Position numbers and translations under genes: made by a program. A DNA stretch of 58,922 nucleotides, filler included, from Sphacelaria rigidula (taxonomy: Eukaryota), in NCBI GenBank assembly GCA_964200075.2. It is 10 parts of 10 records of this genome, joined end to end, with 100 filler letters (N's around TTAATTAATTAA, not from the genome) between each part and the next. Parts side by side here need not be neighbours in the genome. Positions count along the whole stretch, not along the records: positions 17,709 to 23,510 come from CAXNAA020024351.1; 9 more parts are not named here. One strand, given 5' to 3'. The stretch's first letter is position 1. Each line of letters starts with the position of its first letter. Positions 880-58,922 of the stretch are shown here, piece after piece. The notes under the pieces are model-generated. The model was not told the DNA's origin and made no database searches. It saw only the letters and a list, made by a program, of their open reading frames with translations.

Positions 880-3800
880 CTCCTTGAGGACCATGACCGC
901 TGGCAGCGCGAAGCCGTACTTGCCGCCCTGGATGCAGTCGCGCACCCATTTTGAAGACGCCAAGCCACTTTTCGAGTTGTTATGCGACAAAATAAAAAAA
1001 GGGGGAGGGGGTACCCATGATGTTGCATGCCGTAGCCATAAGACCGTTGACCTCGGAGAGGGAGAAGGGGGGGCGTACTCATTTATTGCTTGCCTTAATC
1101 GTTCGACCATTGACCACGTATCCCTTTTGAGTCGGAGCACAGTTTCTACTCCTAGTAGAGAGGGGAAAGGGGGGAAGAAAAACGAACACAAAATACATGC
1201 TTATTCCATTTTTAAATAGTTGGTGCCGGGTGTGTTGCGCGGCGTCAGGTACTGCACAGTTTAACGTCAATGGTCAAGCACTGTAACCCCATATGCTGCT
1301 ATAACTCCCCTAATTTTCACCATGTCCAGAATCATCTCATCACTGTTGACGGCTACATTCTCCAACTCCCCCAGGTTTTGCGGTACGTCGAGACCACGTC
1401 ACGTACCTCATCACGAATTTCTTTTTCTCGTGTCCATGAGACAGGTACGAACCTTTACCGTGCACTTCGCTATATCTAGTTTTTTACGCGCTTTCAAGGG
1501 CGCTCCACCTCGCCACCGCCTCGAATTATCAGCGCGTAAACCATAACTGACATTAAGGCTGTCCGGTGTATGGATAGGTACCAAGGTGGGGGTGCCCCCC
1601 GCTGCCCCCCCCCCCCCCCCCCCCCCCCCCCGCACCCCCGTCTGCCGTCGCTTCTCTCCCCCCCCCCCCTCCTGCCTCGTATCCTCTCCTCCGACTCNNN
1701 NNNNNNNCCCGCTCGATTTTTCAGCGCGAAAACCATAACTTCCATAAAGGCTGCCCGGTGTATTTAGAGGTCCCAAGGGGGGGGGCCCCCCCTCTCCCCC
1801 CCCCCCCCCCCTCCAACCCGGGTAGTCTATGACTTGAATGATTCCCTCGTCCTCAACTAGGTAGGGTCATCTTCACCGAGCAAACCTCCTTTCAATGTGC
1901 CCCAGCTCGACTCTGTACACGAGTCACCCTACCCATCCCGGCGTTGGTCCTCATCGCGGATATATCCACCACTCGGACGCTAAAATTTACCTTTCGAAGT
2001 ATAATCGTCTCGTTGCTCTTCTCTCACGATTCGAGGTTTTGCTTGACTTAGTAGCACAACGCAATTTCGTGCACAGTGTTTGATACTACAAGAATATTTC
2101 ACATGAGCCCCGTGTCCCTCCATGCGGGATAAGAAGTAACCCTCCCCCTCCCTCCCTAGGCACCCAACCACACGTCCACGTAAAACTCGACGTACCCGTG
2201 CTGCGGACTCTCGAAGGAGATGTCGAGCGGAATGTAATCCATGCCGCTGCCGCCGCCCTGCCACGTGCTGCCATCATGGTTGCCCTCGTCGAAGGGAAAC
2301 TGTCCGCTGCCGCCGCTTTGAATAGGGTCCGCGAGAATTTTGATGACCGGCACCGCTGCCGTGTCGATGACCTACATAACACACGTGCGTAGAACGCGAT
2401 TTCTTTTCGATTCTAGTCTTCTTTATATTCTTCAAGACTAGGGGGCTGGGTATTAATACTAATAGTTGATACTCCGACATTCGTACCGATACTATACGCA
2501 CATACATGCACTCAACTCGTCAATTGAGGGGCGGGCATACATCGCGCACTCCCGGCACCGTGACCCATTTTCTTAGTGGCCCAAGAGCGGGGGATAGGGG
2601 TAGTAGGGGTGGGGGCGGGAGAATCGCGACACCCCTTGCAATATCCCAGGTGAACTTGTGTATCGGTGTGGACTGAGCTGAGTGCTCCCTCGACATGCGA
2701 ATAGAGACTGAGAGAAAAAGATCTGCCCCTGCTCCGATCTGGTGCCGGTCACAGCCAGTAAATACTGCCCACAGCGGTACTGCACGACCAAAAATAGAAG
2801 GGAGCTGAAAACAGTTACGCAAGACGGTCGTCTCTGTCACTTTCAAAGGCAGCTACGGTATAGGGTACAGCAGAATAGCGTACGCCACGTACCGCTAGTT
2901 GTGGGTACATGCAGTGCCGATAGCACCGACTACCCACAGCACGAGTATTCCAGGGTGCCAGGATACCTGGAGTATGGGCATTTCCAAAACATCACTGTGA
3001 CGTTGATGGATTTTTATGCGCGTCGGTCTTCAGAGGTAATGGCCGGACAAATATTCGGTTTCAGTGTGAACTATCCTATTAAAACGTTCGAGGGGGGCTC
3101 AGGGTCCCAGGTGCTCGGCAGAGTATGCAAGGCGCGTTTTTGTTCAAGTCGGTGCCGATTCAAGCTCTGCCAACGGACACCTCGCCCAGGACATCTCACG
3201 TGCCTACAGGCTGGTTCACGCTTATCAAGCAAAGAGCAATCATCTGCAGAGACTTGACGCAGTCATCAGGAGTTAGACCCTGATACTTTGCGCAATTTTG
3301 ATATGGGACAGTACGCAACTTTCTGTTGACGATTTTTTTTTTCAACTTCTTAACTTTTCCACCGGATTTCGGGGGTCCCAGGATTCTCACGAGGTCTTGG
3401 ACGCCGTGGATCCCCGAAAACTGGTGAAAATCGAAGAGTACAGAGAACTCATTCATGGACATTTTGTGATGATCCAAAGTATGGGTGTGCAAAATTTCAT
3501 GCTTTAAATCCTAGAAATGGCGTGACTTTTTGCGCTTTTGAGCGATCAAATGAGCTTGAGGAAAACTGTATGAGGTTTTTGAGTTTCGCAGCCAAACTTT
3601 GTGCAAATGTATCTTGGACTACCCGGGACGCATAATATTAGTTATCTTATTTTGAATCATTCTGTACTCTTCAAGCTGGAACCCCCGGATGCCGGCTGGT
3701 GTAGAACGGAGAAACTATCAAATCTCGTCATCAATACATTTGTTCCATTTAGAGCACCAACACCTACGGAACTGTCGAGTGTGAGGGCGATCTGAGCTTC

Positions 3801-6319: not shown

Positions 6320-6660
6320 GGCCAATACATTGGCACGCAGGCAGACCCAATACATATATATTGACCGGTCAATATGTTCCCACCAATGCGACCCTAATAT
6401 ACATTGGTCGTGCAATATGGCGTCGCTCACACTACCCCAATATATACTGATTGGACAATACGTGTTCAACGCCACGGTACCAACATATATTGGGCGGGCA
6501 ATATGTATGCAGTCCCACGACATCAGTATATATTGGGCGCGCAATACGTGTGCAGTCCAAGGGTACCAATATATATATATATATATTACGCCAGCAATAC
6601 ACCGCAAAATTCCAATGCGATCGACTAATATATATTGAACACACATTGTATTGTCCAGGG
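6320..6660. repeat. Degenerate tandem array of roughly 40-45-bp units built on CCAATATATATTG
   Basis: Repeated ccaa(t/c)atatattgg..gcaata(c/t)gt.tgcagtcc units. It resembles subterminal repeats of a DNA transposon. Confidence 0.65.
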
Positions 6661-6867: not shown

Positions 6868-7030
6868 GATATGTAAGGTTTTTGTGCAATGTATGGAAGA
6901 AAGTTAATGAGGGCCCAAATGTTGGAGGAGTCTCTACTAGGAGTAGGAACGGTGCTTCGCCTCGAAAGGGGTGCGTGGTCAATGGTCAAAATACCAAGGC
7001 GCAAGCAGCGAATGAGGACGCCCCCCCCCC
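6868..7030 (+). mobile_element. LINE 3' end, subfamily A (longer copy)
   Basis: The frame RFLCNVWKKVNEGPNVGGVSTRSRNGASPRKGCVVNGQ is followed by a C10 run. Homologous to the other A copies. Confidence 0.8.
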
Positions 7031-8207: not shown

Positions 8208-9084
8208 TGTTGCAGGCGATCTGGACAGCGATACATTTGCGCGTCGAGCACTTACAATATCAGGGGGGGGGGGCATCGGAGTCGTACCTCGGCACTTGCC
8301 TAATAATTCGAGGGTTCTACAGTGGAAGCAACCGCGGCATCATGGAGCAAGCCTTCAACGTACAAACAAATCTCGAGTGAACCCCCAACTTTGACCGAAC
8401 CAGAATGGTGTTGCGCGAATGGCGGTCGAAGGTTTGTGTAGTGATCGACTACTCGAACACGTTCCTCGACACTGTGGAGGCGAGATGATGCCCGGAGTCA
8501 GGAGGAGGACAGCTGCTGGGCGACATTGCAGGAGTTCCACCAGCCATTGAGCAGGCAACCGAAAGATGGTAGAGCGGGAACCAACACCTCTTCTCGACCC
8601 TGTACCTCCTTATCATCGGGTCGGTGAACATCTTCGTGCAAGAGTACAAGGGCACAAAACCGGGAGAGGGACTCGGCGATGGCATAGCTGCCTGGGAAGC
8701 GCTTGCGGGTAAGTACGACAGCTTCTCCACAGAGAATCCGCAACCGTGCTACGACAAGTTGTGCCACACCAAGATTCGGTACAAGAAGGATGCGGAGGAT
8801 TCCTTCTATGCTGCATGTTAGTGGTGTCAGTGTCGAGGAACGTGTTCGAGTAGTTGATCACTACACAAACCTTCGATCGCCAATCGCGCAACACCATTCT
8901 GGTTCGGTCAAAGTTGGGGGTTCACTCGAGATTTGTTCGTACGTTGAAGGCTTGTTCCATGATGCCGCGGCTGCTTCCACTCTAGAACCCTCGAAGTATT
9001 AGGCAAGTCCCGAGGTACGACTCCGACGCCCCCCGATATTGTAAGTGCTCGACGCGCAAATATATCGCTGTCCAGATCTCCAAC
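8208..9084. repeat. Two inverted copies of a roughly 265-bp solo-LTR-like unit (8208-8474 minus, 8816-9084 plus) inside the copia gag region
   Basis: Long, highly similar reverse-complement match. Composite termini are TGTTAG...GCAACA. The second copy interrupts the gag frame. Confidence 0.85.
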
Positions 9085-11806: not shown

Positions 11807-11872
11807 TACTCATTTGTTGCTTGCCTTAGTCGTTTGACCATTGACCACGCATCCCTTTCGAGACGGAGCATA
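11807..11872 (-). mobile_element. LINE 3' end, subfamily A, cut by the contig edge at its C-tail
   Basis: Minus strand reads ATGCTCCGTCTCGAAAGGGATGCGTGGTCAATGGTCAAACGACTAAGGCAAGCAACAAATGAGTA. A C-run also lies on its 5' side (11883-11902). Confidence 0.8.
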
Positions 11873-15410: not shown

Positions 15411-16224
15411 TCTTCAGGCAACGGGCAGATAGGCTAAGGTGTGTTCACCAGAAATCACATCGATTAAATTTGTTTCTGCCCGAAGATTAAATCAGCTCCG
15501 ACCACTCCGTCGTCCTCCCATGGCCTCGTTGCACCGCAAACAAATAACAACTACCAACCCGCTCGCTCAACCAACCAATCGATCACCATGTCGCAGGTTC
15601 TGCCTCGATATCTGGGCTTTATGGCGTTCACCCTGGGGTTCCCCTCGGCTTCGGGGAGTCTTCAGCTAATCGGTGGCGCTAACTGCCTCGGAACCATAAT
15701 CAACAGGTGAACAGTTGCCGAGCCCAATACTGGTTACCCGGAGGTGTTCCGAGTGGTTTGGCGGAAGGGCATGATATGCAAGATGATGTGCGGTGGGCTG
15801 AGGGTTTGCAGCTGTGGTTCGTCGTGGTGTACTGGTAACGTGCTGTATTCCTTGTTGGTCTGACGCTCTAGGGGGTGCCGGCATGAGTGAGAGAGGGAAG
15901 ACAACGAGCGGAAGTAGGTTTGATTTTTATTCCGATAAAAAGGAACTTTCTGGTTGTTCCCATACTCACACTTTCGAGGTAATTTTTTCTTTGTTGTCGA
16001 GTTGCAGTACCCACCCAGAAGTGATGATTGCTTATCGTGAGCCCTGAACGTGGTACTGAATGTGTTGAGTTTCACCAAACACAAGTGTGGTATTCATTGT
16101 GCCCTTCCTTGCGCGGTGTGTCCCCGTGGCGTTGACCGATTGCCACAGGAAATAAACGTCTTTGAACAGAACGATTTCACCGTTGATGCCATGTGACACT
16201 GTTGCACGTTTTCTTTGCATGTTC

Positions 16225-17378
16225 CATACGGTTCTAGAAAATGAAGAGAAAATCAGCGAGGAGCAAGCAGGATTTAGACCAAACCGTAGTTGCGTAGACC
16301 ATGTGTACATGTTGGGTGAGATTCTTCAGGGTAGGAAAGACGCCGGGCTAACAACGTACTGTTTCTCTACGGACGTGCAAAAGGCTTATGAGAGTATGGG
16401 GAAATGGGCTGTGGAAAAAGTTGGGGGAAACTGGGATCAAAAGAAAGATGTGGAGAATGGTGAAGAAGATGGCAGAATGTGCCGAAAGAGATATGATGCT
16501 AGACGAGAAAATATCGAATGTTTCGATGTTTTACGAGGAGTTGATCAAGGATGTACGTCATCATCCCCTCTATTCAAGGTGTTCATTTATGAGTCGATAT
16601 TAGCAGCAGAAGCAGCAAAACAAGGAGTCGCGGTGGGTAAAGATTTAGTATCAGGATTGATGTTCGCGGATGATTTTGTGGGGATTTTAGGAACAGCAGA
16701 AGGATTACAGAAGGAGATAGACAAGGCGCTAGAATGAACTAGGAAATGGAGAGTGACAGCGAACGTCAACAAATGCGCGGTACTCGTCTGTAACTGAGAT
16801 GAGAAAAATCCGGTAGACTTCAAATGGAAGTGGGGAGAGGAGGAATTACCGATCGTAGACCAGTATACATCCCTTGGTGTAGGGATATCAAAAAGCTGTG
16901 CTTGGGATGCACACATGAAGAAAGTAAAATAAAAAGGTAAGCCACAGATAAGCGGAATGGAAGTGATCCTCAGAGACTCGCATCTAGATGCTGGGATTAG
17001 GGGATGCATCCTGACGAACGTGATGGTACCAAAGCTGGGATATGTAGGAGAAGTATGGGAGGGGAACGTGAACGTGAAGAAGGCGAAGAAGATGGAAATA
17101 GTACACATATCAGTAGCTGAGAAAATACTCGGATGGTCGAAAACGGCGAGTAATACAGCATTGAGAGCAGAGTTGGGAATGTACTCACTTGAAGCAAACA
17201 GAGACATGAGGAAGTTGAGATGTCAATATAGCGTGAAGAACATGCAGAGAAAGGTTGCCAGCTATATCTGATGACGCTGTATGGAAGAAGATTACGCAAG
17301 GACGGGTTAGAGTAAAGGTGGGATAAAGGAGTCAAGAAAGTATGGAAGGAGATGAGAGGAAACCAAGACGAAATACTA
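16225..17378 (+). mobile_element. Non-LTR retrotransposon (LINE) reverse transcriptase, decayed and truncated at both ends
   Basis: Motifs EEQAGFRPNRSCVDHV, DVQKAYES, GVDQGCTSSSPLF, LMFADDFV and KCAVLV, followed by YTSLG and LRAELG. Contains frameshifts and stops. Confidence 0.95.
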
Positions 17379-18812: not shown

Positions 18813-19906
18813 CTCCCGCTCATGTCGTCGTGGATATGACAGAAGTAGAAGATCTCCGTAACGTCAGGATCAGTTACCGTGAGGCGGACGGTGTAGTTAG
18901 TCTCGAGCCATGTTTCCTCGGGAAAAAAGAATTGGGGCTCGTAGGTGTCCAGATCGGATTCCTCTCCGTTGATAATGTATACGGGTTCGTCGCCTGTTTT
19001 GAGAAGAAATTTTGTCATTGGCGTTGGAGGGTGAATTTTTGCTGACGGCCAGGATGCCTGCAGAACATTCTTTTTCGGGTTTACAGAACCGTCTTCAGTT
19101 GCTTTGTGGCGTTTATGGCGTCGGTTGCAACGACGCTGTATAGATCGCGAATCACAGCGTAAGCTAGGCAACCAGGCTACCTCTTCTTTGCTTGCGTTTT
19201 TTTGCGGTAACCGTGATGGTGATAGATCTGATTACGCGACGTGGATAACAGAACTCCGCGCGAAGGGGACGATCTTACCAGGTAGTGTGTATATGGTGAG
19301 GCACCCCTGGGGCAGTGTGAAACCCGTCGCTGTCTCTGGAAGTGGCGATGCCAGAAAATGTGTCACTTTGGCTGTTATCTACTCAAGATAATAGTACGCT
19401 CCGGGCCGAATATTCTTCGCAGGATGCAACCCACTCTCCATGCGACTCGCCGAACACACCACGGTGCTTCGCGCTTGGTGATTGAGTGCGAGCCTGGTCC
19501 GGCAAAAAACCGGCGTGCTCCGTCCCAGCTTTGTAGGGATACGAGATCAACGGTCCCATGACCACGGCATGCGAAGCCATGAGTACACACCCCGTCCTAC
19601 CTCCACCTCTCCCTCGAGAACGATCACGTTTTTCTAAGCTGTTGTTTGACCACGGTCCTTCCTCCCCGTTCTTGAAAAGTAAGAGAGTAGATGCGGTGAA
19701 TTCATCCGAATACCTTTAAAAAAAACGTGCAAGTTCATCACGATTGACAGAAATCACTCGGTATCGCTCGTTCCGTTCACTCACCGTTTCCAACCGCGGC
19801 TTCAAGCTCGTCCACACCATCATGGGCGCCGTCGGGGTAGTAAGCAAAGCCCAGCGGGTGGAACCAGTTCGACGCATCGAGCTGGTCAAACACGTAAGTC
19901 TCGCCC
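18813..19906 (-). CDS. Partial cupredoxin-like (type-1 copper motif) protein. Exons 19906-19785 and 18993-18813
   Basis: Phase-compatible AG/GT exons give GETYVFDQLDASNWFHPLGFAYYPDGAH...YEPQFFFPEETW...EIFYFCHIHDDMSG. This has an upstream His (HPL) and a C-x2-H-x2-M loop. Confidence 0.8.
19480..19593 (+). mobile_element. Retroposon 3' end, subfamily B, in an intron of the cupredoxin-like gene
   Basis: Reads GAGCCTGGTCCGGCAAAAAACCGGCGTGCTCCGTCCCAGCTTTGTAGGGATACGAGATCAACGGTCCCATGACCACGGCATGCGAAGCCATGAGTACAC, then a C-rich tract. Confidence 0.8.
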
Positions 19907-22317: not shown

Positions 22318-22460
22318 TGTGGAGAAACGTAATGAGCGCCAGAATATTGGAGGTATATTGGTAGTAGGAACGGTGCTCCGTCTCGGAAGGGATGCGTGGT
22401 CAATGGTCGAACGACCGAGGCAAGCAACAAGTGAGTACGCCCCCCCCGCCCCCCACCCCC
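22318..22460 (+). mobile_element. LINE 3' end, subfamily A
   Basis: Reads ...GGAACGGTGCTCCGTCTCGGAAGGGATGCGTGGTCAATGGTCGAACGACCGAGGCAAGCAACAAGTGAGTACG-Cn. The frame ends NGAPSRKGCVVNGRTTEASNK*. Confidence 0.85.
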
Positions 22461-30262: not shown

Positions 30263-33200
30263 CGAGTCTGCGTATCACGCGGGAGACGAGGTGGCCGTGG
30301 CTTGGTTCTACGAAGGAACTGCGGAGAAGTTTCAGATCACGTTGCAGAAACAAGGGAAGGATGTAGCAGATCTCTGCGAGAACGAAGAGAATGGGGTCTG
30401 CTATGACTTGACGCAGGACCAGACCGTCGTTCTCCCCGAGTGAGTGGCAAGTGGGATGTTTGTGTTCTTATCGCCAAAGGTTATGTAACTTATTTCATCC
30501 ACCATGTCGAGCTCATCCCATGCAAATGGGATCGCCGCAGGGTCAAGATCATAGCTGGACTCCCAGCTTACCTTTTTCCAGTCACGATACGGGCTCTTGA
30601 ATCAAGAGTTATTACTTCAGTGCGGTAAGGGGGCAATAGTAGATGGACGTTGGGTCACCGACCGGGTTTGTAGCTGACGAGTCCACGTGGAGGCGGTGTC
30701 CTCGGTAGCTAACGGCAGTGGAAGTAGTCGTCGGTCAATTGAACAGTTTCACAGCCTGGACAACAGATTCCATTGTCGAAAAGTGTGCAGCGTAGAGTAT
30801 CGACTGTTGCGTTCATTGCAATAGACGAGAGGTTTCATAGTGTTGTGCGCAGTACATTGTTCGGCAGTGGAATCTAGTGTCCAGGGTGTGAACAGTTTGC
30901 CACAAATACGTGGGGGCAGTTTTTCGCCCAGATGCCCGCTCGACTCTTTTTTCTCCGGCGGGCCGGGATCGTTAGTTCCTGAAGCATGGTGTGCAGTTGA
31001 CTCCCTGAGAAAGCCCGGCCCGCCTCACCTATCGGCATCAACAGCAAGCTAGGGTTGCACCTCGTTCTGGTCACGTGATACAGTCACTTCGTAATGTTCC
31101 GTGTCTAGTGCCTCCAACACGAAATACAACACACTCGCCTCACGTTTCGCTCCAACCGATGTGCGTACTGATCACACTCATCAGAGACCTTGAATCGGGA
31201 TCGGACTACACGATCACCGTGGAGGACAACGATACGGGCGATTCGCACGTGTCGGACCCCTTCACCGTCATCGGCGACACCGATGTCAACATAGAGATCA
31301 CCTCTCCTGACGGGTATGTTCTTGTCGTACCTGTCATGCTGTCTGATTTTTGTCGGCTGGAGATGACGATGTAAACTGCTGTATGGCGTCGGCTCTGCGA
31401 GTATTGGCCTCACCTTGTATCTTGTCTACTGCTGCATGATTGGCGGTCATCTCTTATCTATTTGAGCCAACAACGACCTTCACAGGAACGTCGTTGTAGA
31501 GTGCTGCTGGTTTGGCACTTGCAAGTAACGTTACCTGACATAGAGTGTAGAGCGCTGATCGAGAGTGGCGTTGGTCACTCGCTTTACCTCAGCCAATATT
31601 TCATTCCGTGTGTGCTTATTTTTGCCTCCATCACTAGCGTGTGCTCACAACTACACGTAGATATCCCACCCTGGAACCCCAAGGGTCTCAGTGGAAAGCT
31701 ACTACAGAACGCATATCGGGCCTCGCGAAAGGGTATTTCGGAACTAAAACGGTTCATTCACTACTTGACCGCTCTTCACCCTCAATCGTATCCTCTACTC
31801 TCAATCTCACGAAAATATTGTCGAGCACGGCGGTGTGGTACATCTATCTGACTCACCATGGAAGGCCAAACCTCCCATGCCCCCCACCCCCCGCGCCACC
31901 CTCGGTGACGTATTTCTGTTCTCTAACAGTCATTTCTGAGAAAATTTTCTTCTGAGAGTACCGCAACGTGTTTGTACTGGTCTCTTCACTTGCATAGTAC
32001 ATTCTACTGAGCGTGTCCCATTTCCCCCCACCCTCGCGCACGTGATGAGCTTTCAAATGTTGGAGGTGTGTCCATCAGGGGTAGGAAAGGTGCTCCGTCC
32101 CGAAAGCGATATGTGGTCAATTGTCGAACGAATAAGGCAAGCAACATGTGGGTACGCCCCCCCCCTCCGCGCGCACGCACGCACGCACGCTTTATTGAAT
32201 TGATGCAGGACCTCTTCCTTCGAAGCGGGGGAACAGATCGAGGTGGAGTGGCTGTACGTGGGCGATAACCAGTTGTTCGATATATACGTTCGTCAGGGTG
32301 ACGGTGACTTGAGCGTCCGTGTAAGCGAGAACCTCTGCGCGGGAGAGAGCAGCGGGTCTTGCCTGGGGTCGAATGTCGGATCGGCCACGGTGACGATCCC
32401 TGCGGAGTTGGCTGATGGCTCCGACTACACTCTGCTCGTTGTGGACACCGAAGACGATGACGCGTACGGCATATCGGTCTCGCTCTCCGTGGGTATTGAA
32501 TTGTCGAGTGAGATCAATGAGGGATTCTCGACCGGCACCAGCCTCGCCATCGTTATCGGCGCGTGCGCCGGAGGTGCGTGTGATGCGGTGAAGTCGCCGT
32601 CGTTGGCTGCAAGATATTGTTGACCCTGCGATGTTTAGAAGCATGATTCGTGTGCCGCATGCCGTAGCTGTGAGTACGGAGGTGCATTTGCCGAATGTGT
32701 ATTTCCTTGTGTTTGGATTTCCCCTCTCCACTTTTGCACATAACTGTTCCCGCCACCCCTGTCGGACGACGAGCCGAATCTATAACCGAAACGTCTCGTA
32801 TCGGTAAGTCGAGGTAATCAACTTTGTTTTCTGGTGAAATATAACATGGATTGCAGCTCCCATTTATTGGCTAGAGCCAAATTTTTCGAGGTCACGTGAC
32901 GGACCGTTGTACAGAGAGGTAAGAACGAGGCTATTGAGCCGCCCCCCTCCCCGTGCTCCCTGTTTTGGAGGAAATTTTGCCATTTGACACTCACGCCGGA
33001 GAACGATGTTGAACACTCGACCTCCCCCCCCCCGCGACCCCTGCATTTCATGCTTGCTGTGCAGGGATCTGCTTGGTAGCACTGCTCATGGCCGTGATGC
33101 GCAGAAGAAAGAAGGAGAAACTGCGCGAAGAGAAGTTGGCCACCCTGGACATGATGCAAAAACGCCGACGCGCCCCGTCCGTTGCCCTCGCCGTCGAGGA

Positions 33201-35414: not shown

Positions 35415-35485
35415 CGGCTTTGTAGGGATGCGAGGTCAATGGTCTGATGACTATGGCATGCATGATCATGAGTACACCCCCCCGC
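35415..35485 (+). mobile_element. Retroposon 3' end, subfamily B, at a contig start
   Basis: Reads CGGCTTTGTAGGGATGCGAGGTCAATGGTCTGATGACTATGGCATGCATGATCATGAGTACA-Cn. Confidence 0.8.
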
Positions 35486-37539: not shown

Positions 37540-37860
37540 GCTGATCCCGCCACGCGCGCAGAGTAACAATGTTTTCGTGAGGTTGAGAGTAGAGGATACG
37601 ATTGAGAGTGAAAAGCGGTCAATTAGTGAATGGATCGTTTCAGTTCCGAAATGCCCCTCCACGAGGTCCAATATATTTTCTGTAGTAGCTTGCCACCGAA
37701 GCCCTTGATATCTCTGAGTGGGATATCGACGTGTGGCTGTAAGCGCACGTCAGTGATGAAGGCAAAGAAAAGCACGCACGGAGTGAAAAGTTGGCTAAAT
37801 TAAAAACGAATGATCAAAGCCACTCTCAATCAGCGTTCCACTCCCAATCTCACGAAAACG
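37540..37860 (-). repeat. Second copy of dispersed repeat family E
   Basis: Reverse-complement match to 31500-31850. Confidence 0.8.
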
Positions 37861-40800
37861 TTGTTCAGCAAATTCTGCCGAGATGATCACCTCATTGTAG
37901 TCACAATTCCATGGTTTCTAGCGACCGCTTGGCTGTATTCCTCGTCCACTCGTGGTGTCTCTGGAAGATGATATTCGTCCCGTCATTTGTCGTTCCTCCG
38001 AGTCTCTCACCGCAGTCAATCCGCCTCCCAGAACAATCGTGCATACTTGCTTCTTTCGCACGTAAACTGTCTGTGGTGTTGCAGTTTCTGCCAACACTTG
38101 ACGGAATTAGCTGTCAATACTATGGTGAATAGTTTGTGTTTCAGGAAAATCGTGATGGAGCTATGCCTCAGATGTGCGCAGAACTGCTCCAGCGTCTGTT
38201 CAAAACAGAAGAAAAGAGAGCGTTTTGCATACATGACTCCCCCACAGATCTCATGTGTTGTAAATACCCAAACTACCAGACTCGACCCCCGCCCACAGCA
38301 CTGCAACCCCATCCCAATACAGAGGTCGGGTTCCAGGCAGGCAAGCCTACACCAGGGATGATTGTGGCACAAAGCAGGCTCATGAAGTTTCTATGGTTGT
38401 TCGTGCTATGTTTAACAGGTTTGTGCAAGAGTTTACGTTTGCAGAGCAAAGCAACGTACGGTACAGTGGGTTCCTGGCAGCTCGAAGGACACTGCCGCCC
38501 TCCTTTGCGCCGACAGGGCTGGCGTTCCCTGAAGAAATTCATCGTGACCCATTTTTTATCATACCTGCCATGACAATAATCAGCTGAGAAGTTTTCGTGA
38601 GCGTAAAATAAAAGGTGCAAGCTACTTTTTTTTCTCTTGAAGCGTATCATGCAATTTATCATCAAGACATGGAATGTTTCCCAATATTTTTGTTTTTCTC
38701 AAAGAATCCAATCGGCCCTTATGGTGGCGCTTTTTGTCCATCGTGTTTTCATGTCGCTGTGCCATTTCAGGTGACTTGCATAGGGACTTGAACAGATTTT
38801 CCCAACTGAGCGTTGTCTTCACAGATCAAATGTTCGCACAAAAGTTCATTCTGCTCACATGACCACATTTTGTGCTGATGCCCTCCGCCCACAGCTCCCT
38901 ACATATTGCGATGCTTGGGGTTAACGCTTTCACATGACGTAGTGAATCACACACACTGGAGCAGCATGCCAAGTTCGGAGACATGGTGTGGATCGTGGCT
39001 GTCCTGGATGCTCTCGATGGTAACGGATGACAAGTGTGTCCACACTATGCGTGCGTATCCGACTAGAGGTTTCTCTCACATGACATGAAAACTTTTCAAC
39101 AGTCGCCACCGGGAGCGATATGACGACCGCGGTACACGCCGTGCACGAAGACATGGTGTGCTGCTCCGGTAGGGTGTCGGCACGTCACGTAAGTTAACTG
39201 ACTCCGACCCTGGTCGTCTGTCAGAGAGTTGTAGGCTGTGAGGATGTAAATCGCGGCACAGAGGCATAACAGCCTACACAAAATGCCACGTGAGTCGAAA
39301 ACGTGCCATGTCTCTATGAGAAGTGGAATTACGCTGCGAAATGTTGCGCTAACGAAAAGCATTTTTTTTCGAACTCTCTGGAAGTGCAACGCAATTGCTG
39401 CCGCAGAGCCGGTACAACTCATTCTCATAATCTGTGGCGAAAATCATGGCCGGGCACGTGTAGGCAAAAAGTGTGTCTTACTGCCCCCGTGGTATGTATC
39501 CGTGTGTGAGGCTGTGCGCTACACCACTGACACGTGGGGAATGACCCAAAGGCGTCGCGGAGAAGACCCTCAAGAAACGAAATAGGTGCCGTTGGACATT
39601 TTGTTCGCTTGCGGCGCCGGCTAGGTTCGGTTGGGGGGATCACATACATGATGACACACTCTCTTGTTTTTCGCGCGGATGAAGAGCATTGACGGCGGTG
39701 GGCATTTTTTCTCACGCCCCATCGACGGCCAGGCGTTGAACCTTGTATGTGCATCACCTCTGATTGGTGCACTGTTCTATTCATGTACTGCTGCCGAAAA
39801 CTATACAGCGTAGTCTACGAACCCCGTGGTGTCAGTGGTTTGAAGCAATCTGAAATTAGACACAGGTGAACCATATGCACTTGTGTGTATGTATGTGTGT
39901 GTGTGCACGAGCACATGCTCGGGGCGGGGGGAGGGGGGAGACGGAGAACTCGTGTCATACAGATATTTGTACTGATGATATTTTTCGTGATACGAACCAG
40001 CACCGGAGCTCTTGTGCGAGGCATGCGCATGAACGAGGGCGGGGAAGCACATGTGCACGTATTGGGTACAACTGCTATAACATAGATGTAATTCTATATG
40101 TTTCGAAGTCCACTTTTCGAACGAGTGGTATGTGTCTTGCACTGTTGTGAAGCGGCTCAACGTTTTTTTTTGTCGCTCTTCAAACCTCCCCCCTTCCTCG
40201 GGATGAGTCTGTGGACTCGAGGGATTATCCTATCTCTCCCCTGGTACACGCCTTGCATTTGGGTCTCGCGGATTGGATCAGCGCTCCCTCACTGCGTCAA
40301 CTCACGCCAAAAAAACTCAGTGGACGACTTCGTTTACTCACGTTCTCATGCTTTCCTCGGTGGAAATCAGATATCACGAAAAGCAAAACCCAACGCATCG
40401 GGAACCGAACCCTCGTTCTCTCCACCCTAATGGCGACAGTCGGACCATTACACCATCCGGACGCGGCAACTGCAACCAGAAAAATGATTGTCGGTTGAGC
40501 ACGGCTATCTGCGAACAGCTCATGCGGGGCGATGCCAAAGCTCACCCCACACCATCTCAGCAGAGTGACATAAGAGAGAGTTACTATGCATGCAACTATG
40601 GAAACCTGGTTCACCAGATTATGTCGGCGTGTCGTCTGGTGACATGGAGTTGTAAAAAATACCCGAAGCTCTGTGAGCTGAGCTTGAGCTGTGGCCTGTG
40701 TTGACGCCATGCTTTCAGCCATCTCCAGCACAGTTAGACATGCTAATCGGGGCCAAAACATATATATATATATATATATTTCAAAAGGTGTGTGGGATCT

Positions 40801-41844: not shown

Positions 41845-42365
41845 CACACCCAGGTGATACTCTGTACTCAAGTATTACTGACAGTGCTTACTCAGTATTT
41901 GAGTGGATTTTCGAAGGCCTTACTTGCTCTACTCAAACTTTCAGTAGAGTATTTGAGGTCGCACCCGATCTACCTAAACTTTGAAAAGAATTTGAGGCCG
42001 TACTTGACCTCCTCAATATTTGAGTAGAGTATTGAGGTTAATACCCAAGTGATACTCTATACTCAAGTATTCCTGAGTGTGCTTACTTAGTATTGGAGAA
42101 GAGTATTGGAGGTCGTACTCGATCTACACAAAAATTGCGTAGAATATTTGACGCCGTACTCAATGTGTGACCTCGGCTGGTGCGCCCATATATACCGAGA
42201 AGTGTAGACCTGCGTCCAGAATAGAAGGGACGAGAACACACACACTCGGTTCACCCAAAATTTGGGTAGAGTATTTGAGGTTGTACTCGACCTACTCAAG
42301 ATATAAGTAGCGTAAATACTCGGGTATTTTACTTTAGTACTGAAACGTACATACTCTACCTGACC
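41845..42365. repeat. Degenerate tandem array of roughly 40-bp units (GAGTATTTGAGGTCGTACTCGA..TAC), followed by TTCCATGGAAG-type repeats to about 42605
   Basis: Many imperfect gtagagtatttgaggt.gtactcga units plus a duplicated gtgatactct.tactcaagtatt.ctga..gtgcttact. Probably transposon subterminal repeats. Confidence 0.7.
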
Positions 42366-42776: not shown

Positions 42777-42893
42777 CCCTTTTGGAACACATTGAACATT
42801 CTTGGTTTGTGAATCGGCATCATTATCAGTCATTTTCAAGTCAAAATAATGCCGATTCACAAAAACAAAAATCGTCAATGGGTTCCAAAAGGG
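42777..42893. mobile_element. 117-bp piggyBac-type MITE
   Basis: TIRs CCCTTTTGGAAC / GTTCCAAAAGGG, an internal palindrome TTTGTGAATCGGCAT...ATGCCGATTCACAAA, and degenerate TTAA flanks. A second copy at 58816 is preceded by an intact TTAA. Confidence 0.8.
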
Positions 42894-43025
42894 TTGACCC
42901 TTAGACGGCGACAGTAGGTCATCCGTCGAATCGGCATCAATTTCACATGGAAAAGGCATGCACGATCCAGATAGACTACCCTTGCAATCTAAGGGTTAAG
43001 GTCGTCGATCATGCTTGCCGCTTAC

Positions 43026-43171
43026 CTGGGAAACACTTGGTCGATTTTGATGTGGGTGTGTCCCACCATCTTGAAGTTCACCTCGATCACGTCCACAATG
43101 TCCTTCGCCACTACCATCCCCGCGTACGCGAGAAAAACGTTGTTCTTGTTCTCCGAGGCGGCGTCGTCCAC
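43026..43171 (-). mobile_element. Exon of a Sola-like DDE transposase
   Basis: CAG/GTAAG-bounded exon VDDAASENKNNVFLAYAGMVVAKDIVDVIEVNFKMVGHTHIKIDQVFP matches the DNxxxENKN...FxxVGHTHxxIDQxF core of Sola-related transposases. Confidence 0.7.
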
Positions 43172-43699
43172 CTGAGTGGTTGCCGGTAAGAGGCGTTGGG
43201 GGGCGGGGGCTTGAAGCCGGTGATAGGAGATAATCGGAATCCTCCTTTTTGTCTGTGGACATGAATATCCCAAGTAACGATCTGAGGATCGTACCTGGTA
43301 GCTCTCGGTTTGGCAACCGCCTCGTTACGTATAGCCTCTGCCAGACGATCTGGACAAGAGGGCTATTCAGTGAGGGACTTCTCCAGAATCCACTGGCCTC
43401 ACGCTCGATAGGAACTTCTCTTAGAGTATCCATTCACGAAGTAAGCAGCCGCGACCTGTACCACCAGGCTTAGGCTACACAGCAAGGGTCATCATCCAGG
43501 ATCGTACTCATGCTACATCTACTACGCTATGGTGTATTTTGGCTACAGCACCCCCAAAGCGAGTTCAAGACAATCGAACGAGCTTGACAACCAACAAAAA
43601 GCAGGGCGAATTCGCATCCTCTAAAACACAAAGAAATGCCATACCCCGACGCTAATGCACTTGTCAGCGCCCGAGTCAACCTCAGTTTACGTAATTCCT

Positions 43700-43975
43700 G
43701 CGCAACAAATTCAGGCTCAAAAACAAATCTTTCGGAGAGACTTCTACGTACTTTCGTCAGCATCGAACCCATCTCAATTGCTTCAGAACCATTCGACCAA
43801 TGGGTATACGCAACATCAAATGGGTGTTGCACCTCCAGCGCTTCGCTTTGCTGCGCGACTCTTGTTCTCGGTTCTCGAAGTGCGTGGCGGTCTCACTAAC
43901 CCACACACGCCGCACCTCCAAAGTCTTGCACAATTGCAACAAATACTCAGCCGTAACCTCGGCAGTGCAATCCTC
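43700..43975 (-). mobile_element. Separate Ty3/gypsy integrase remnant
   Basis: AEVTAEYLLQLCKTLEVRRVWVSETATHFEN...VAYTHWSNGS is homologous to PRVWVSDTATHFKN...VAYSPWSNGT at 58118. Confidence 0.8.
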
Positions 43976-45099
43976 GGTTGGTTCTCACCAAACGAAATTT
44001 GACAAATGACTAATGCCGAGATAGACCCCCCACAAAAAGTGCACGGGAGACCGTCCGACAAACCGGCTGCGATCCCACTATTGGGCTCATTTGCAGCAAT
44101 GCCGCCCACATGAAAGGCTTGTAGCAGCGCGAAATCAGCTATAACGCCCAAATAAGTCGCGTTGTGGAACACGAAACCAGCTCTAACGGCATTTATGATT
44201 ATCGCCTTCGTGCACAGTTTTGGCCGGTTTTGGGGGGGGGGCTATCTTGGCAGCAGTCAAATAATCCGGGATAACAAACATACAGCAAATCATCAGGCAG
44301 TTAGTACCGTCAAGCTCGCTACTTCCGACGTACAATAATCAAGTTGAACAACCTCACCTGGCGCGATACCTTGAAAACTATCGCCAAAAACATGCCAGGA
44401 GCAAGGATCAGTTTCCATACGTGCACACCTTTTTTTATCCTCAGACACACGAAAACTTGTGTGATCTCTGCTCACAGACAACGAGCCTACGCATTTTGTA
44501 ATTTCAGCTCATTTTCACGACATCAGCAGCAGTCACCATCTCCTATAGTCAGTACGAGCCGACACATTTCGCTCATTATTCAGCAGCATTTTGTCAACTG
44601 CCCCACCCTGACGGTCATCGAACACCATGCACATCAGTGGCATTCGAGTGAAAATTCCACATGCATTCCAAGATCCCACTCAGCATACGAAACTTCGTAC
44701 ATCCATGCCAATATTTGACTCAGGACCTGCAATGCAACGTGTGTCGCACAAACCATGCATCATGCATGCTATTCAGAGCAGCACAACACAAGCATACCAA
44801 ATTCCACGCGTACACCGGCACTTCCAGCGAACGCAACAGGAGCACACCCGCTCTACGGTCATGCTTCAAAAATATCAGTCATCATGTGTTTCCTCATGCT
44901 CTAAAAGCCCGTCACATCTAACACCCCCGTGGTGCATCTCAGTATGTCACCAAACAGCATATCCTTACTGCCGAACCGATGTGACAAATACTCTGCCTTC
45001 ACAGAAGCTTGCACATCGACGAATTCTCCTGTTTCAGACGCTTGATCAGGTGAAACGAGGGGTGGAACGGGAACAATCATACAGTCCCGCATAGCAACA

Positions 45100-47118
45100 G
45101 CTCTCGAGGACACCACACCATCCTCATTAAGCATCTGACCTGACAACATATGAGCAATATCACGCATCATTCGCTTACATTTACGATGGGACAACGGCGA
45201 ATTGACCATCCGAAATCTACGATCCATCAACGCCTTAGTAAACGCTCTCACCGCACAATTCTTCACATGCCATCCCGTATCGCCGACCCATACCTCCGGC
45301 GACCCCATCGCTTTTGCTTTGAACCATGTCAGAAAATACTCCACCTTCTTCGCCTCCACACTAGACTTTGCGGGCTCCAACCACACGAAGTTGCTCACAT
45401 CGTCTTTGATTGCCAAATCATCTTGGATCGGATCTCCATCGTCCAACCCACCATTTTCCAGCTGACTACTCGCTCCATCGCTGAGGAAATTGAAGTTGAT
45501 CACCTCCTCCGGGCGAGTACCATGCACCTGATCCCCACCATGCACCATATCCTCGTGGGGAGGGGGAATGTGCGCCCCCACCTTGGATTCGCTCACCCCT
45601 CGCGAGCGACAATTTTCCGGCCTTTCCCTCGCCGCTCTTTCCAAGCTTGACTGCAAACTGCAGTACAGTAACCCAAACGCCACCAAAACTGCAATGCACG
45701 AAGCTCGCCACCCGGCCTTCACCGGATCGTTGCAATTGGGCTGGGCCTTCGCATCCGTCGCCTATGACTGTGGCTGCACCCTCATAGGCGGTACGGCTCC
45801 ACTCTCAGGAGCTTACTCTTCCTCTCCACCTGTATCCTTCTGGCTCTCACTTTGAAATGACCCCTCAGGGACGATCACCCGCCTAGCCGGAAGATAACTA
45901 GGGTTGTTCATGCCGATCTGCACCGTCACAGCACGCGGGCGTAACCTTTCCCAAGCCAGCGGATACAAATCTACCCCGAGTTCCTTCATAGTCGCCATGG
46001 CAAACAACACCACGTTGTCGTTGCCAGGCATGACGGCGAAAGTGATTGGCGACATCTCCACAGCACCCCACGGCTTTCGCACGCTTACAGCAATAGGCAC
46101 CGTTTTATGAGAAATAGTCACGGGCGCACCCGTGGCGCTCTGTGCCATTTGCGGTCCATTATCAGATGGTTGCTGTAGCTAGGCGTGCCCGAACTGTGAA
46201 GACAGCTGTTGCAGCAACCCCACACTTATTGATGTGATTGCTGATCCAGAGTCGAGAAAAACTCGAGCCATAAAAGAACCAACAGAACCGGGTATAGATA
46301 GATCAGCGCGCAAACACTCTGCGCTGCGGTCGACAGGCACCACACCTGCCGAAGAAAAACTCTGGTTAGTACCTAGAGTCACTTGACGCCAAGGCAGCGC
46401 TCCAGCACTTGACATCGATGTTTTTGCACTCGCCGCAACAGTGGAAGAGACACCCGACACGAATCCTGCCGAGCCCATGGGTTGCGAGCCTTCCGCTCCA
46501 GCACTCCCCACCGAAGTATTATCTCTTCCCACATATGTCAGCCGCCCCGACACAGACGAACCTGGAGATCTAGCGTTAACACTTGAAAACGCATTTTGGG
46601 ATACAGTAGCGGCGAAACTACTATTCTCCGTCGCTTGGTTTCGTTTTTGGTCCCTGCCTCTGCACCCGTATCTCTGGTTGCTTCGGCCTTGTCCGCCACA
46701 GCAACCGCCTCGAGATCTTGACCTATCTCGCGCAAATCCTTGCGCAGCGCCTTTTGCACGAGGCTCGGGGCAAAATATTGAAATATGCCCATGGTCGCCA
46801 CAATTGTAACATACGCGAGTGAACAACGCTCGCGAAGTCGGCAGCTGTTTCCGTTGCATACGCTCGTCATACTTTGACGTTTCTAACGGTTTATCTCAAA
46901 CCAGCGGCATCGTTGCCGCTTGAGCCATGTTATGACTCAAAAATCACGGATAAACTTTTGCCTTACTTGAGCGTCCCTCCAGCGGAGTGTGTTCCTCCAA
47001 ACGCTGTGCGCTGTAAGCTGTCTTCCGTCTGCGGGCTGAACTAGCTCTATGCGGCAGCCCAATCCCTCCTCAGCCAAAACTCCTCTAACAGAGTGCCGAA
47101 GAATAATATCTAGATATT
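45100..47118 (-). mobile_element. Internally deleted Ty3/gypsy element (gag zinc knuckle, protease, RT start fused to integrase)
   Basis: CYNCGDHGHISIFC, FLDSGSAITSIS and PWGAVEMSPITFAVMPG are followed by the RT N-terminus (WRASCIAVLVAFGLL), joined directly to integrase (MVHG...INFNFL...PEVWVGDTGWHVKN). Collinear with 54140-58810 apart from the missing RT/RNase H. Confidence 0.88.
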
Positions 47119-48091: not shown

Positions 48092-48547
48092 AATTAGTTG
48101 ATCATTTGCCAGTAGACTAGGTTCCATGTGTCATACTTTGTTATGCTTGGTACCTAATGGATCATACTACCTTGCGTGGTAAAATTGGGATGGCTGCCCT
48201 TATGTGTTACAACGTTTGGGACTAGCATTTCAACTAGCAAAGCAGAAGTTAGCCTGTTCGCCGATGATACAAGAGCACCTACGCCATCGCGGACCGCGGT
48301 ATCACAGGGGTCCCTGGTCTTTTCACAACGTAAGTCTGATCTCTATGCAACATCTGTTGTTCTGGCTTGTGAGCGGCTCATGGGTATGCCGCCCGACGCC
48401 GCAAACGTGGATTGACTCCGCACTTGGAAAAGTCGAACTTGACGGGTCGATATACTTGATTGTGTTTAGGCGCGATGGCCCAGGTGTCCACGAACTAGCA
48501 CTTTACACCCCCAGACGGTAAGTATCGAACCGTGACATACGACTATC

Positions 48548-51500
48548 ATGTCGCACAGAAATAATGCCGGCTCTTCTCCTCAATTGGGAAACCGACCGCT
48601 TCGCCGGACACGGAGCCAAACCACTGGCGGTTCGAAATCTTTTGATATGAGTGTCGCGTCACCTTCGACTACTCGACGCACGTACGCGAGTGCTGCTCGA
48701 TCTTCGGGATCTGAAGACCAACCTTCGAGCGTTGCTCGTTCTTCGGGGCTTGAAGAAAAGACTATGACATCGCGACTTGTTCTCTCCAGTACCGATTCGG
48801 ACTCAGAGAATAGGACCATGCCACCGGCCGAGTCATTGGCTCCTGACAGATATGTCAGTAAACCCATAACGGTGGATTCCGTAGCACCCCCCTCGCTGCG
48901 TCCTATTCTTCCGAATCCCAATGTGGAATCCGAAGACAGGAATGTGCCCCCAGCTGAGTCGTTGCCCCTGGACACAAGTGTCCAGCATGGCCCTGTAACG
49001 GTTGCTTCAACCGTGGCACCGTGTCGAACGACGGTTGACAACTTTCGAGACGACGCAGTCCCGACGAAGCGTATCGCTTCTGGAGCAGGAGATTTTGTCA
49101 CGCGGGTTGCTTCTGTTACGGACCCCAATCGCACGACTCTCGGCAGCCCAATGCGCTCTGCTTCGCAGACCAATGTCGGACCAGCAATCGCTGCCATGCA
49201 GTTTGCCCTGCAGAATTTGCATCGCCCTTCTTCGGCGTCGGCGCACACGCCAGTCTCAGCTCTAATCGAGGCATTTACGGCTTTTTGCCAGGCCACACTC
49301 CAAGACCAATCGTCTTCTGCTCACGTGCAATTCAACGATGACTCTGCACCTGCCGCGCCCAAACCCGTACGTTTTGCGCCCCGATCGGCGACACCGCGTT
49401 CTCCGTTCGTCTCTAATGAGAAATTCAACGAACACGAGTCCAGCCCCTCCTCCACTTCAAACCAAAGTCTTGCTCGCGCTCCTGAACGGCGCCGCACGCC
49501 GACAGTTGGTCACGAACACGTTACCCGTGCTGGCAGTTTCAAGGACAACTCCCAGCACAGCTTGAATTCATCGCGCGTTTTCATACGCCCGAAGAATGTC
49601 GCTCATGGCCGCACATATGAAGGTAGTTCACGACACAGTTCCAATTCATCGCGCACTCCGCAGCGCCCGACGAATGCCGACCGTGACCGTACTCACGAGG
49701 ATAATTCGCGGCACAGATCACGCTCATCGCGCGTTCACTCGCGCTCGAAGAACGCCGATCATGCAACCGCGCGCACCCCTCCTGCTCCGCCTCAGTCACG
49801 CCGCCGTCACGTACGCAATGATTATACTATACATGCTGACGACATCCAGAATATGTTTTCGGACATGTCACCGGCTCTCGAATCCTCAATTAAGGGATCC
49901 AACCGTAATTCATCGCACAACCGGCGACCCCGCAATGACCGCGACCCCCCGTCCCGCTCTAATGCTGTGATTATTCGCTCCCTCCAACAACGACTGACAG
50001 ATCTCGAGCGAGAACTGACCAAGTCAAGAATGGAAAACAAGGGAGTAACCACTTCCGCTGCCGCCGAAATCACCAGGGAAAACAAAGGAGTCACCGCCAC
50101 TGCTACTGCCGCCAACACTGCCGCTGCCCCCGCTGCTGCCATGGCCGCTGCGCCTCCCGCTACGACGACTACAGTCACGGCTCCCACAACCGTTACCGCC
50201 CCGTCTGCCGTCGATACCGACGCTGATAGTGGCCCAACCACTGGTCCCGTCACGGATGCCCCTGTGCCCTCGCCCCCGTTTGTGGAGGATCTCCCTCCGC
50301 TCGGCGACGAGCACTGCCCCACTGGCCTCCTCTTGAGGCTGTTCAGGAACCGTGCCCGCGCGGAACAGTTAATGCCCATCGAGGATTACGCCTTACAAGC
50401 GCCAGCGCTTGCCAAGGACATCAAAGAGCAATATCGTGATGCTGACGCCGCTGCTGCACGCCTCCTAGCGGAAGAACATGCTGACACGCAAAGAGATCTT
50501 CAGCGGCAGGCTTCACACGCACAAACTACGAACCCCGCTGCTCAACGCCTGCTGCAGGAAGGTTGAACTACTGCCATGGCGGCCCAGAGACGAGTGCGGG
50601 ACCTCGAGGACCATGTCCGATGGACCGTTCACGAAGCGGCTACGTCGGTGGCCCGCCTGACCAACCATCAGGCCTCTCCGCCGTCCGCCGGCAACCCGCT
50701 TAGTGGGTGCCCTTCTTACCAGCCTTCGGCTCACAAGGCCCAGCCCAAGACCGGTACGTCGACTTACACTAGTCTACGTAAGTCCGACCAACCGTGGTAT
50801 GCTGCGGCCGCTGCCATCCCCAAGACGGTCCCAACACCCCCGCTTCGAGCAGCTAGCTCGGTGGCCAATGCCGGCCCGACACCAGGCCAGCAACTCATGC
50901 CCCACGAACGAACTTGGCTTTCTGGTTCCGCGGCCGATTATACCGGACTGTTCCTCCGGACCAACCACCTACACTACTCCCGCCAAGCTTGGAACTTGGT
51001 GTCGCAACGTCTCCACCACATTATTACTTTTTCCGTGGACCAGGGCGAATTCTTCCCCGACAACGGCATACCGTGCCTCACCTTGGGCCAACTTGTTCTC
51101 CACATGACCATCGGCGACAGCCCTGATCACCAGCATTACGTCGAAACTCTCACCGATATTTTTGCGGCACTACGTGCCGCTTACCCCTGTGATCCCGGCG
51201 CCACCATCGCCGACGATGACCAGGATGACGATGATTGAAGTCCCACGAGTGCCAACTGCAGAGGCAAGAAGAAGAACTACCGCTGGGATGACGACGACAA
51301 CGGTGGGGGAGGCCCACGCCACCGCCATGGCGGCGGAGAATCCTTCTCGGGCGGTTCCGGACCGAATTGCCCGGTCCACAATAACCGCGGCTCGACCCGG
51401 GAGGAACCAGGAGGCAATTCTCTCGGATCTCCCGCGCCAGGTTGGAACCGGTCTGGCACAGTCCTGCCCCCCTCGGGTTTGGCGACACCCAGGCAAGTGA

Positions 51501-58811: not shown

Positions 58812-58815
58812 TTAA

Positions 58816-58922
58816 CCCTTTGGGAACTCAAGTGCTGATTCTTGTTTTGTTAATCTTTGTGAATCGGCATCATTTTGACTTGAAAGTGACTGGAAATGAT
58901 GCCGGTTCACCGAAACAAAAAT
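58816..58922. mobile_element. piggyBac-type MITE (truncated by the contig end) inserted in the gypsy 3' region
   Basis: TTAA (58812-58815), then CCCTTTGGGAAC and the same TTTGTGAATCGGCATCAT palindrome arm as 42777-42893. Confidence 0.8.

Follow-up and report, generated by a model that had tools for sequence, protein, structure and literature searches.

A predicted folded module at the 3' end of a brown-algal RTE-X LINE and its tail-only copies

Introduction

What is encoded at positions 22371..22445 of this Sphacelaria rigidula DNA, and on what does selection act there? An earlier note on the same DNA had read the feature as a conserved three-stem RNA at the 3' end of a retroposon, overlapping the stop codon. 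We analysed the whole stretch of 58,922 nucleotides (the window), which consists of ten contigs of about 5.8 kb with N spacers between them, taken from an assembly of 244 Mb in 27,214 contigs. The feature is the 3' end of a brown-algal RTE-X LINE with a C tail and C-led target duplications. Judged from sequence comparisons and predicted folds, the last 68 nt of this LINE probably serve as a folded cis signal for TPRT that lies over the last 20 codons. Most copies of the family, here called family A, consist of the folded module alone. This is the strongest feature of the locus and was absent from the earlier note. The LINE and its partner are already published as a pair, and the tail-only class carries the new part.

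Results

Family A has the features of an RTE-X LINE

The window contains five family A ends, four ends of the partner family B and one LINE body.

1011..1055 (-): 45-nt fragment from the 3' end of family B
1074..1161 (-): family A copy, 89 nt, then B fragment
6875..7020 (+): family A copy whose P2 carries a double transition ascribed to chance
11807..11871 (-): mini copy of family A (67-nt class), truncated at its 3' end where the contig begins
14157..14260 (-): family B copy, about 99-104 nt
16237..17377 (+): decayed LINE body (RT region) of the same LINE as family A, without the 3' end; 77% to L248; RVT_1 at 16156-16737
19116..19587 (+): family B non-autonomous copy, about 500 nt
22326..22439 (+): 5'-truncated family A (RTE-X LINE) copy, about 119 nt, with the last ORF codons; 86% to L181 and L248
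22440..22462 (+): C-rich tail and start of the target duplication, assigned from the sequence and the family pattern
32040..32156 (+): family A copy, 118 nt
35415..35476 (+): 3' end of family B where a contig begins

Translation of the long A copies gave the C-terminal half of an RT protein. The host copies seen are broken fragments, the longest one compared being 1.57 kb, and an intact piece of 519 aa was found in another organism (L181), with the same end peptide and nearly the same last 80 nt. In full-length homologues one ORF encodes both EN and RT; Exo_endo_phos and RVT_1 were found in P0002 and P0003, which match P0001 at 82% and 69% in the C-terminal 220 aa. Homologous proteins labelled Ectocarpus and Sphacelaria have the same end peptide as family A and point to a brown-algal host.

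Tails and target duplications were scored in 56 copies (60 loci minus 4 with short flanks). The tail had at least 7 C in its first 10 nt in 42 of the 56 copies, and duplications with at least 3 non-C letters flanked 20 of them (shuffled mean 3.3, maximum 8). Twelve of these 20 informative duplications started with CCC, and one was a match to a neighbouring copy. Around the copy at 22326..22439 no clear duplication was found. The features of RTE-X elements were present in the family: a single ORF with APE endonuclease and RT, a (C)n 3' end and a C-rich target duplication.

Compared by description, family A is like RTEX-1_Ec32 and RTEX-2_Ec32, Ectocarpus RTE-X LINEs of 5.5-5.9 kb full length with a single EN-RT ORF, '(C)n 3'' and C-rich target duplications (available part of PMC12477816). 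The family, the tail and a 3' end common to the LINE and its partner are already known there for Ectocarpus (RTEX-1/RTEX-N1), whereas a 68-nt class is not described in that part of the paper. The Ectocarpus supplement tables hold differentially expressed copies only and are silent on such a class; among these copies, none of the 25 RTEX-1 rows listed of 44 was shorter than 132 bp. Algal LINE DNA or protein was also met in records labelled as bacterial MAGs (L248, L249, L252, L253; P0006), which is likely eukaryotic contamination.

The predicted fold

The fold was placed on the copy at 22326..22439 as follows.

22361..22379 (+): rival hairpin H0, in which the family GGAGTA pairs with TGCTCC; one base is mutated here; competes with P1 in long RNA
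22373..22378 (+): P1 5' strand GTGCTC; edge of the mini-copy starts and start of the A/B homology
22380..22393 (+): P2, a hairpin of 5 bp whose GNRA loop occupies 22385-22388 (in B the loop has 9 nt); 92.6% of cells paired
22394..22425 (+): irregular stem P3; inner hairpin 22405-22416 robust (89.9% paired), outer GC/GC weak (82.4%)
22432..22434 (+): ORF stop codon TGA, overlapping the P1 3' strand
22433..22438 (+): P1 3' strand GAGTAC

The stems drawn in the earlier note were recovered, that is GTGCTC 22373-22378 with GAGTAC 22433-22438, CGTCTC 22379-22384 with GGGATG 22389-22394, and the P3 core at 22405-22416. The reading frame was also as described and ends NGAPSRKGCVVNGRTTEASNK, with the stop at 22432-22434 inside P1 and 5 nt before the C-run, and family B does keep the stems with other loops. 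The covariation, the compensatory pair and the interrupted frame in B that the same note had put forward did not hold, as detailed below.

When 22373-22441 was folded in isolation with RNAfold, P1/P2/P3 was the best predicted fold. Stability above chance was not found for this isolated segment (RNAfold, z = -0.67, 40 of 200 shuffles as good), and in a 111-nt context with 33 upstream bases added, z was +1.49 and P1 was lost to the rival fold. For L181 with its C tail, the probability of P1 was 0.94 when the RNA started at the first base of P1, 0.73 with 1 extra base and 0.07 or less with 3-200 upstream nt. With one base fewer, where the RNA starts at base 67, the commonest start, it was 0.04. 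The inner P3 hairpin stayed near 0.9 across the RNA starts. RNAalifold, a check proposed in the earlier note, did not return P1 from 14 long A ends and gave H0, P2, the inner P3 hairpin and another closing stem; on a gappy 66-copy alignment it gave no structure. G22394 is claimed by the outer pairs of both P2 and P3, and another base stands there in 6 of 26 A copies and 17 of 80 B copies, so this pair is weak. P2 and the inner P3 hairpin are common to most predictions, and P1 is context-dependent.

The Rfam search that had likewise been proposed gave 0 matches at gathering score in the window and none relevant at E<=10 with 4 loci; no self-cleaving ribozyme or xrRNA model was matched in either. 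The three-stem fold was not found in print for family A in a literature search outside most subscription papers and Repbase reports, and 'secondary structure', 'stem' and 'hairpin' had no match in the main text of PMC12477816.

A second hairpin was predicted in A by RNAalifold at about -115 to -81 (22326-22360 in the window). Third-position change is low there, and a smaller cluster of 5' ends lies near the hairpin base, 115-128 nt from the end.

Covariation and sequence constraint

The double change CGCCTC/GGGGTG in the copy at 6950-7020 had been taken as compensatory. It is explained by chance: P2 was changed on the left side in 35 and on the right side in 84 of 1853 copies, and 2 copies with both compare with 1.59 expected (probability of at least 2, 0.47). 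Covariation as such was evaluated on a model-based alignment, used in place of a joint MAFFT alignment which misplaced the P2 gap. Among 65 distinct model-aligned ends 89.2% of cells pair, and two-sided changes were confined to 11 of 1212 cells, at most 2 per pair, in decayed single copies. At the family level no two-sided compensatory change was found; only one-sided compatible changes were seen, and the stems barely vary, which leaves little power. The formal pair counts gave a covariation score of 0.137, reached by 2 of 500 shuffles, and related sequences can give such a score without structure. Distant families added no power since all tails found in 3 metagenome loci, 2 protein-found and 4 pattern-found contig loci were near-identical; among the contig loci the full tail was present in L248/L253 and L252. 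In viral data none of 43 pattern loci had the full tail, nor did any match in the protein scan.

The families A and B were then compared on the RNAfold fold of one A copy alone. Their majority sequences differ at 1 of 40 paired positions (U.G to C-G) and at 7 of 16 aligned unpaired positions (p = 0.0003); besides, the P2 loop and the last linker are not of the same length in the two families and are unalignable. At third codon positions, the host majority (157 copies) and L181 differ at 0 of 20 sites in the fold and at 131 of 477 upstream of -128 (p = 0.0016), with 2 of 20 differing at -128..-69, which is also conserved; the sequences compared are related and the p-values overstate independence.

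These comparisons bear on a reading which we consider doubtful, namely that the structure is not a three-way junction. P2 and the inner P3 hairpin would be real, and the end would be closed by GCGTG/TACGC with H0 upstream, or the signal would lie mostly in the primary sequence. The RNAalifold result agrees with it, as do the RNAfold predictions for L096 and for the 111-nt window context, and in A the A-rich unpaired bases are as invariant as the paired ones. However, the A/B differences at positions 25 and 67 break this closing stem in B and are neutral for P1, H0 cannot form in B, and both the mini copies and the common A/B block start at P1.

The C-terminal peptide was compared in 16 distinct protein ends from 27 proteins. 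The last 21 residues were nearly invariant, and the recurrent changes were C/R (8/7), K/T (9/7) and V/A (14/2). By minimal codon change these would be neutral for the structure, converting wobble to Watson-Crick pairs or falling in a bulge. That a needed C-terminal peptide accounts for the conservation, the fold being incidental, is very improbable: the near-invariance of the residues and the weak z-scores of the fold would suit it, but the third positions are frozen, a non-coding partner retains the block, and the radical changes C/R and K/T are common.

In 81 B copies variation was 9.4% at paired and 13.9% at unpaired positions, and the frequent polymorphisms were mostly in loops or bulges, with G27 as the exception. 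In A copies it was equal (9.0% paired, 9.8% unpaired, with column 1 inflated by truncation), as expected from decay after insertion. In the RNA reads of another organism (X22), the common variants inside the fold, among the 40 listed of 71 rows, comprised a change compatible with wobble pairing, a base in a loop and the unpaired base at the very end. The proposal that selection acts on the RNA rather than the peptide is therefore favoured indirectly by the third positions, the pattern of A/B differences and the amino-acid changes, and receives no help from covariation. A tail common to LINE and partner was found, as in stringent LINEs; compensatory changes in the stems, as far as these alignments reach, were not.

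Family B is a non-autonomous partner

Family B is non-coding and has a full length of 563 nt (7 of 83 measured copies at 562-563 nt). Its match to A is limited to the last 59 nt or less, and the common block starts at the base of P1 and has 8 differences in 56 aligned columns. The earlier note had offered two identities for B. The SINE-like partner was right, as B with its 563 nt fits the published description of RTEX-N1_Ec32; the sister LINE was wrong, as B is non-coding and matches A at the end only. The longer P2 loop was said to break the frame in B, which has no frame to break.

RTEX-N1 is described as 607 bp long, with an unknown head and a 60-bp 3' end 83% like the LINE, and may be tandem (available part of PMC12477816). 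Compared by description, B is like RTEX-N1_Ec32 and RTEX-N2_Ec32 in being non-coding and about 600 bp long, in its unknown head, in having only a 3' end of about 60 bp in common with the LINE, and in that it may be tandem. Unlike them, B carries at its start a 47-nt repeat of its near-terminal region, a feature absent from the published description in that part of the paper. A strict-SINE head (tRNA, 5S, 7SL) was not found; ARAGORN gave 0 genes in 6 loci, and Rfam at E<=10 had no relevant match on 4 loci. A likeness of P2 of B to the SRP Alu domain is unsupported by the searches: RF00017 (SRP) had no match among 25 scored of 4101 candidates, a weak test.

The first 47 nt of full-length B repeat the segment that lies 96-50 nt from its 3' end (L047:1056-1102, L058:785-831, L101:841-890; window 19492-19538). 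The repeat takes in the 5' strand of P1 as well as P2, which in several copies has two further compatible changes. Pairing with the far 3' end is one possible role for the repeat, and marking a start or processing site is another. In 7 of 83 B copies the 5' end is at 91-101 nt, close to where the repeat occurs internally, and 14 of 83 measured copies have 5' ends clustered at 498-517 nt, between two hairpins, in a set that was partly search-selected.

A and B are inserted into each other's C tails in nested or tandem clusters (L003, L013, L054, L085; window 1011-1161). Four A copies (L010, L011, L028, L030) have a common downstream flank, which points to one insertion duplicated or to 3' transduction. 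At L186:1672-1900 (-) a single old copy combines an upstream ORF, a P2 loop of 9 nt as in B and an end of the A type. Another autonomous family carrying the B-type loop was considered and rejected, as nothing closely related to the L186 copy was found (79% for the next best) and the hybrid pattern gave 1 match.

Tail-only copies start at the base of P1

The 5' ends of family A were measured in 60 copies, which were the first 64 places of the exact P2 pattern minus 4 at contig starts and were otherwise unselected. Counted from the 3' end, 3 copies start at 60-62, 46 at 63-73, 2 at 74-110 and 9 beyond. The modal starts, 17 at 67 and 14 at 68 (together 31 of 60), fall on the first two P1 bases. 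Towards greater lengths the edge is sharp, with 14 copies at 68, 2 at 69, 1 at 70, 1 at 71 and only 4 at 69-73. In evenly spaced 600 kb plus the window (659 kb) 15 of 33 A copies have their 5' end 63-72 nt from the 3' end, and extrapolation from these 15 gives about 5,500 tail-only copies genome-wide. An exact 20-mer inside P2 has 4049 copies and a 20-mer directly upstream of P1 has 593; part of this drop may be due to higher upstream variation. In the literature search described above no tail-only class was found.

The mini copies are flanked by duplications of their own, lie in differing surroundings and share haplotypes with long copies, and their junctions show ordinary microhomology or extra bases. 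Their edge coincides with the start of the A/B homology and the first bases of P1. Family B has the same P1 and no pile at its base (0 of 19 copies vs 15 of 31 in A), so P1 alone does not set the edge.

RNA reads (X22) and contigs (X19) of two other organisms were aligned to L248. The largest 5' loose-end piles listed were at the same 3 bases in both, with 829/463/544 reads and 121/96/105 contigs, and C-runs precede them. The X22 depth rose there from about 550 to about 3,500 per strand. As both strands were covered alike, this points to genomic minis inside transcripts or to an unstranded library, not to free small RNA. No pile of molecule starts was found in X22, a fragmented library and hence a weak test. 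From X17 only 32 contigs aligned, and from X21 no reads. At L248:3563-3565 loose G-runs stand behind the element end in X22 (403 reads) and X17, probably a sequencing artefact at long C-runs.

Co-translational decay leaves RNA ends at roughly 17, 47 and 77 nt from the stop. A ribosome-footprint origin of the edge was rejected since its distance to the stop is 59 nt.

How the edge may arise

By analogy with stringent LINE/SINE pairs, it is plausible that the tail serves in RT recognition, and likely that the recognition module is copied on its own. The endonuclease would nick the G-rich strand and the G-ended primer would pair with the C tail of the RNA; the counterpart in L1 is the pairing of a T primer with poly-A. 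The ORF protein would bind P2/P3, closed by P1, beside the tail. Trimming or cutting of the LINE RNA as far as the P1 base would remove the upstream competing hairpin and leave a protected 67-68-nt RNA to be copied to its end. Tail-only copies of this kind that land behind other transcripts would found partners like B. As the cause of the edge, a trimmed or cut RNA is our leading explanation, held tentatively at a little under an even chance. It is favoured because the upper edge is sharp and P1 forms once the upstream bases are removed.

A serious possibility of somewhat lower probability involves no short RNA. The fold would be the RT signal, and the minis would result from abortion of reverse transcription on full-length RNA, where it meets H0 or the boundary of the bound module. 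In long A RNA, H0 covers -80 to -62, with the end of its loop at the modal starts -68/-67; neither H0 nor the pile is present in B; the mini haplotypes are shared with long copies without a common 5' flank; and the ordinary microhomology or extra bases at the junctions fit as well. Yet the sharp upper edge, with a tail towards shorter lengths, looks like run-off from a template end. Moreover, a hairpin is expected to make RT pause at its 3' foot, here near -62. Because the commonest start weakens P1, and B has neither H0 nor pile, this abortion stands close behind trimming.

We think it quite unlikely that the minis are a separate, self-propagating micro-SINE family with its own master copies. 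One loop allele is enriched in minis (28 of 91 vs 12 of 101, p = 0.002), and 11 of 59 minis stand directly behind another element end (within 45 nt). In the random sample, but not in the 60-copy set, minis are also less diverged (0.060, n = 14 vs 0.127, n = 12). On the other hand, there is no diagnostic allele, no common 5' flank and no tRNA or Rfam head, and the starts are scattered over 63-71.

Trimming could be extended to a switch. The upstream hairpin would hold the P1 strand in the long message, and a cut after translation, by the RNA itself or by a host nuclease, or trimming would let it refold into the three-way junction and become a 68-nt retroposon made of structure alone that outnumbers all longer copies and seeds non-autonomous families across brown algae; we rate this as rather unlikely.

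Comparison with other LINE tails and RNAs

LINE 5' truncation is usually described as scattered. In family A the 5' ends pile at one edge, whereas a review gives LINE truncation 'at various positions', at 100-1,000 bp (available part of PMC3747384). The 3' tails of zebrafish ZfL2-1 and ZfL2-2 contain a stem-loop that is bound by ORF2 in a loop-specific manner (available part of PMC4176376). Like these stringent LINE tails (PMC4176376; PMC3747384), family A has a structured 3' tail, here by prediction, beside a terminal repeat and common to LINE and partner. Unlike ZfL2-1/ZfL2-2 as described there, its predicted three-way junction overlaps the coding end, and the loops differ between the partners.

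The minis provide a natural minimal TPRT template and an exact place to ask what ends reverse transcription. Since their edge is also the start of the LINE/partner homology, the long-standing idea that SINEs arise when a LINE tail is captured becomes directly testable, and tail-only copies are possible seeds for new parasite elements. The family also helps to explain the C-runs scattered through the genome.

In exonuclease-resistant three-way junctions and RNase P-cut tRNA-like RNAs, a helix has a 5' base that defines the RNA 5' end, as P1 might in family A. They differ in that family A gave no Rfam match and no tRNA in the searches above.

Other repeats in the window

By visual inspection of the ORF list, interrupted frames for a Ty3/Gypsy-like protease, RT and integrase lie at 54174-58900 (+) and 42800-46900 (-), and the two regions have short mutual matches. 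At 48536-52978 (+) a 676-aa low-complexity frame is followed by gag-like frames, possibly of another retroelement. A MITE-like inverted repeat of 260 nt (93%) has its arms about 350 nt apart at 8215-8474 and 8828-9081. Two degenerate tandem arrays are found at 41848-42295 and 6354-6576, and a dispersed 297-nt repeat (80%) pairs 31527-31821 with 37566-37862.
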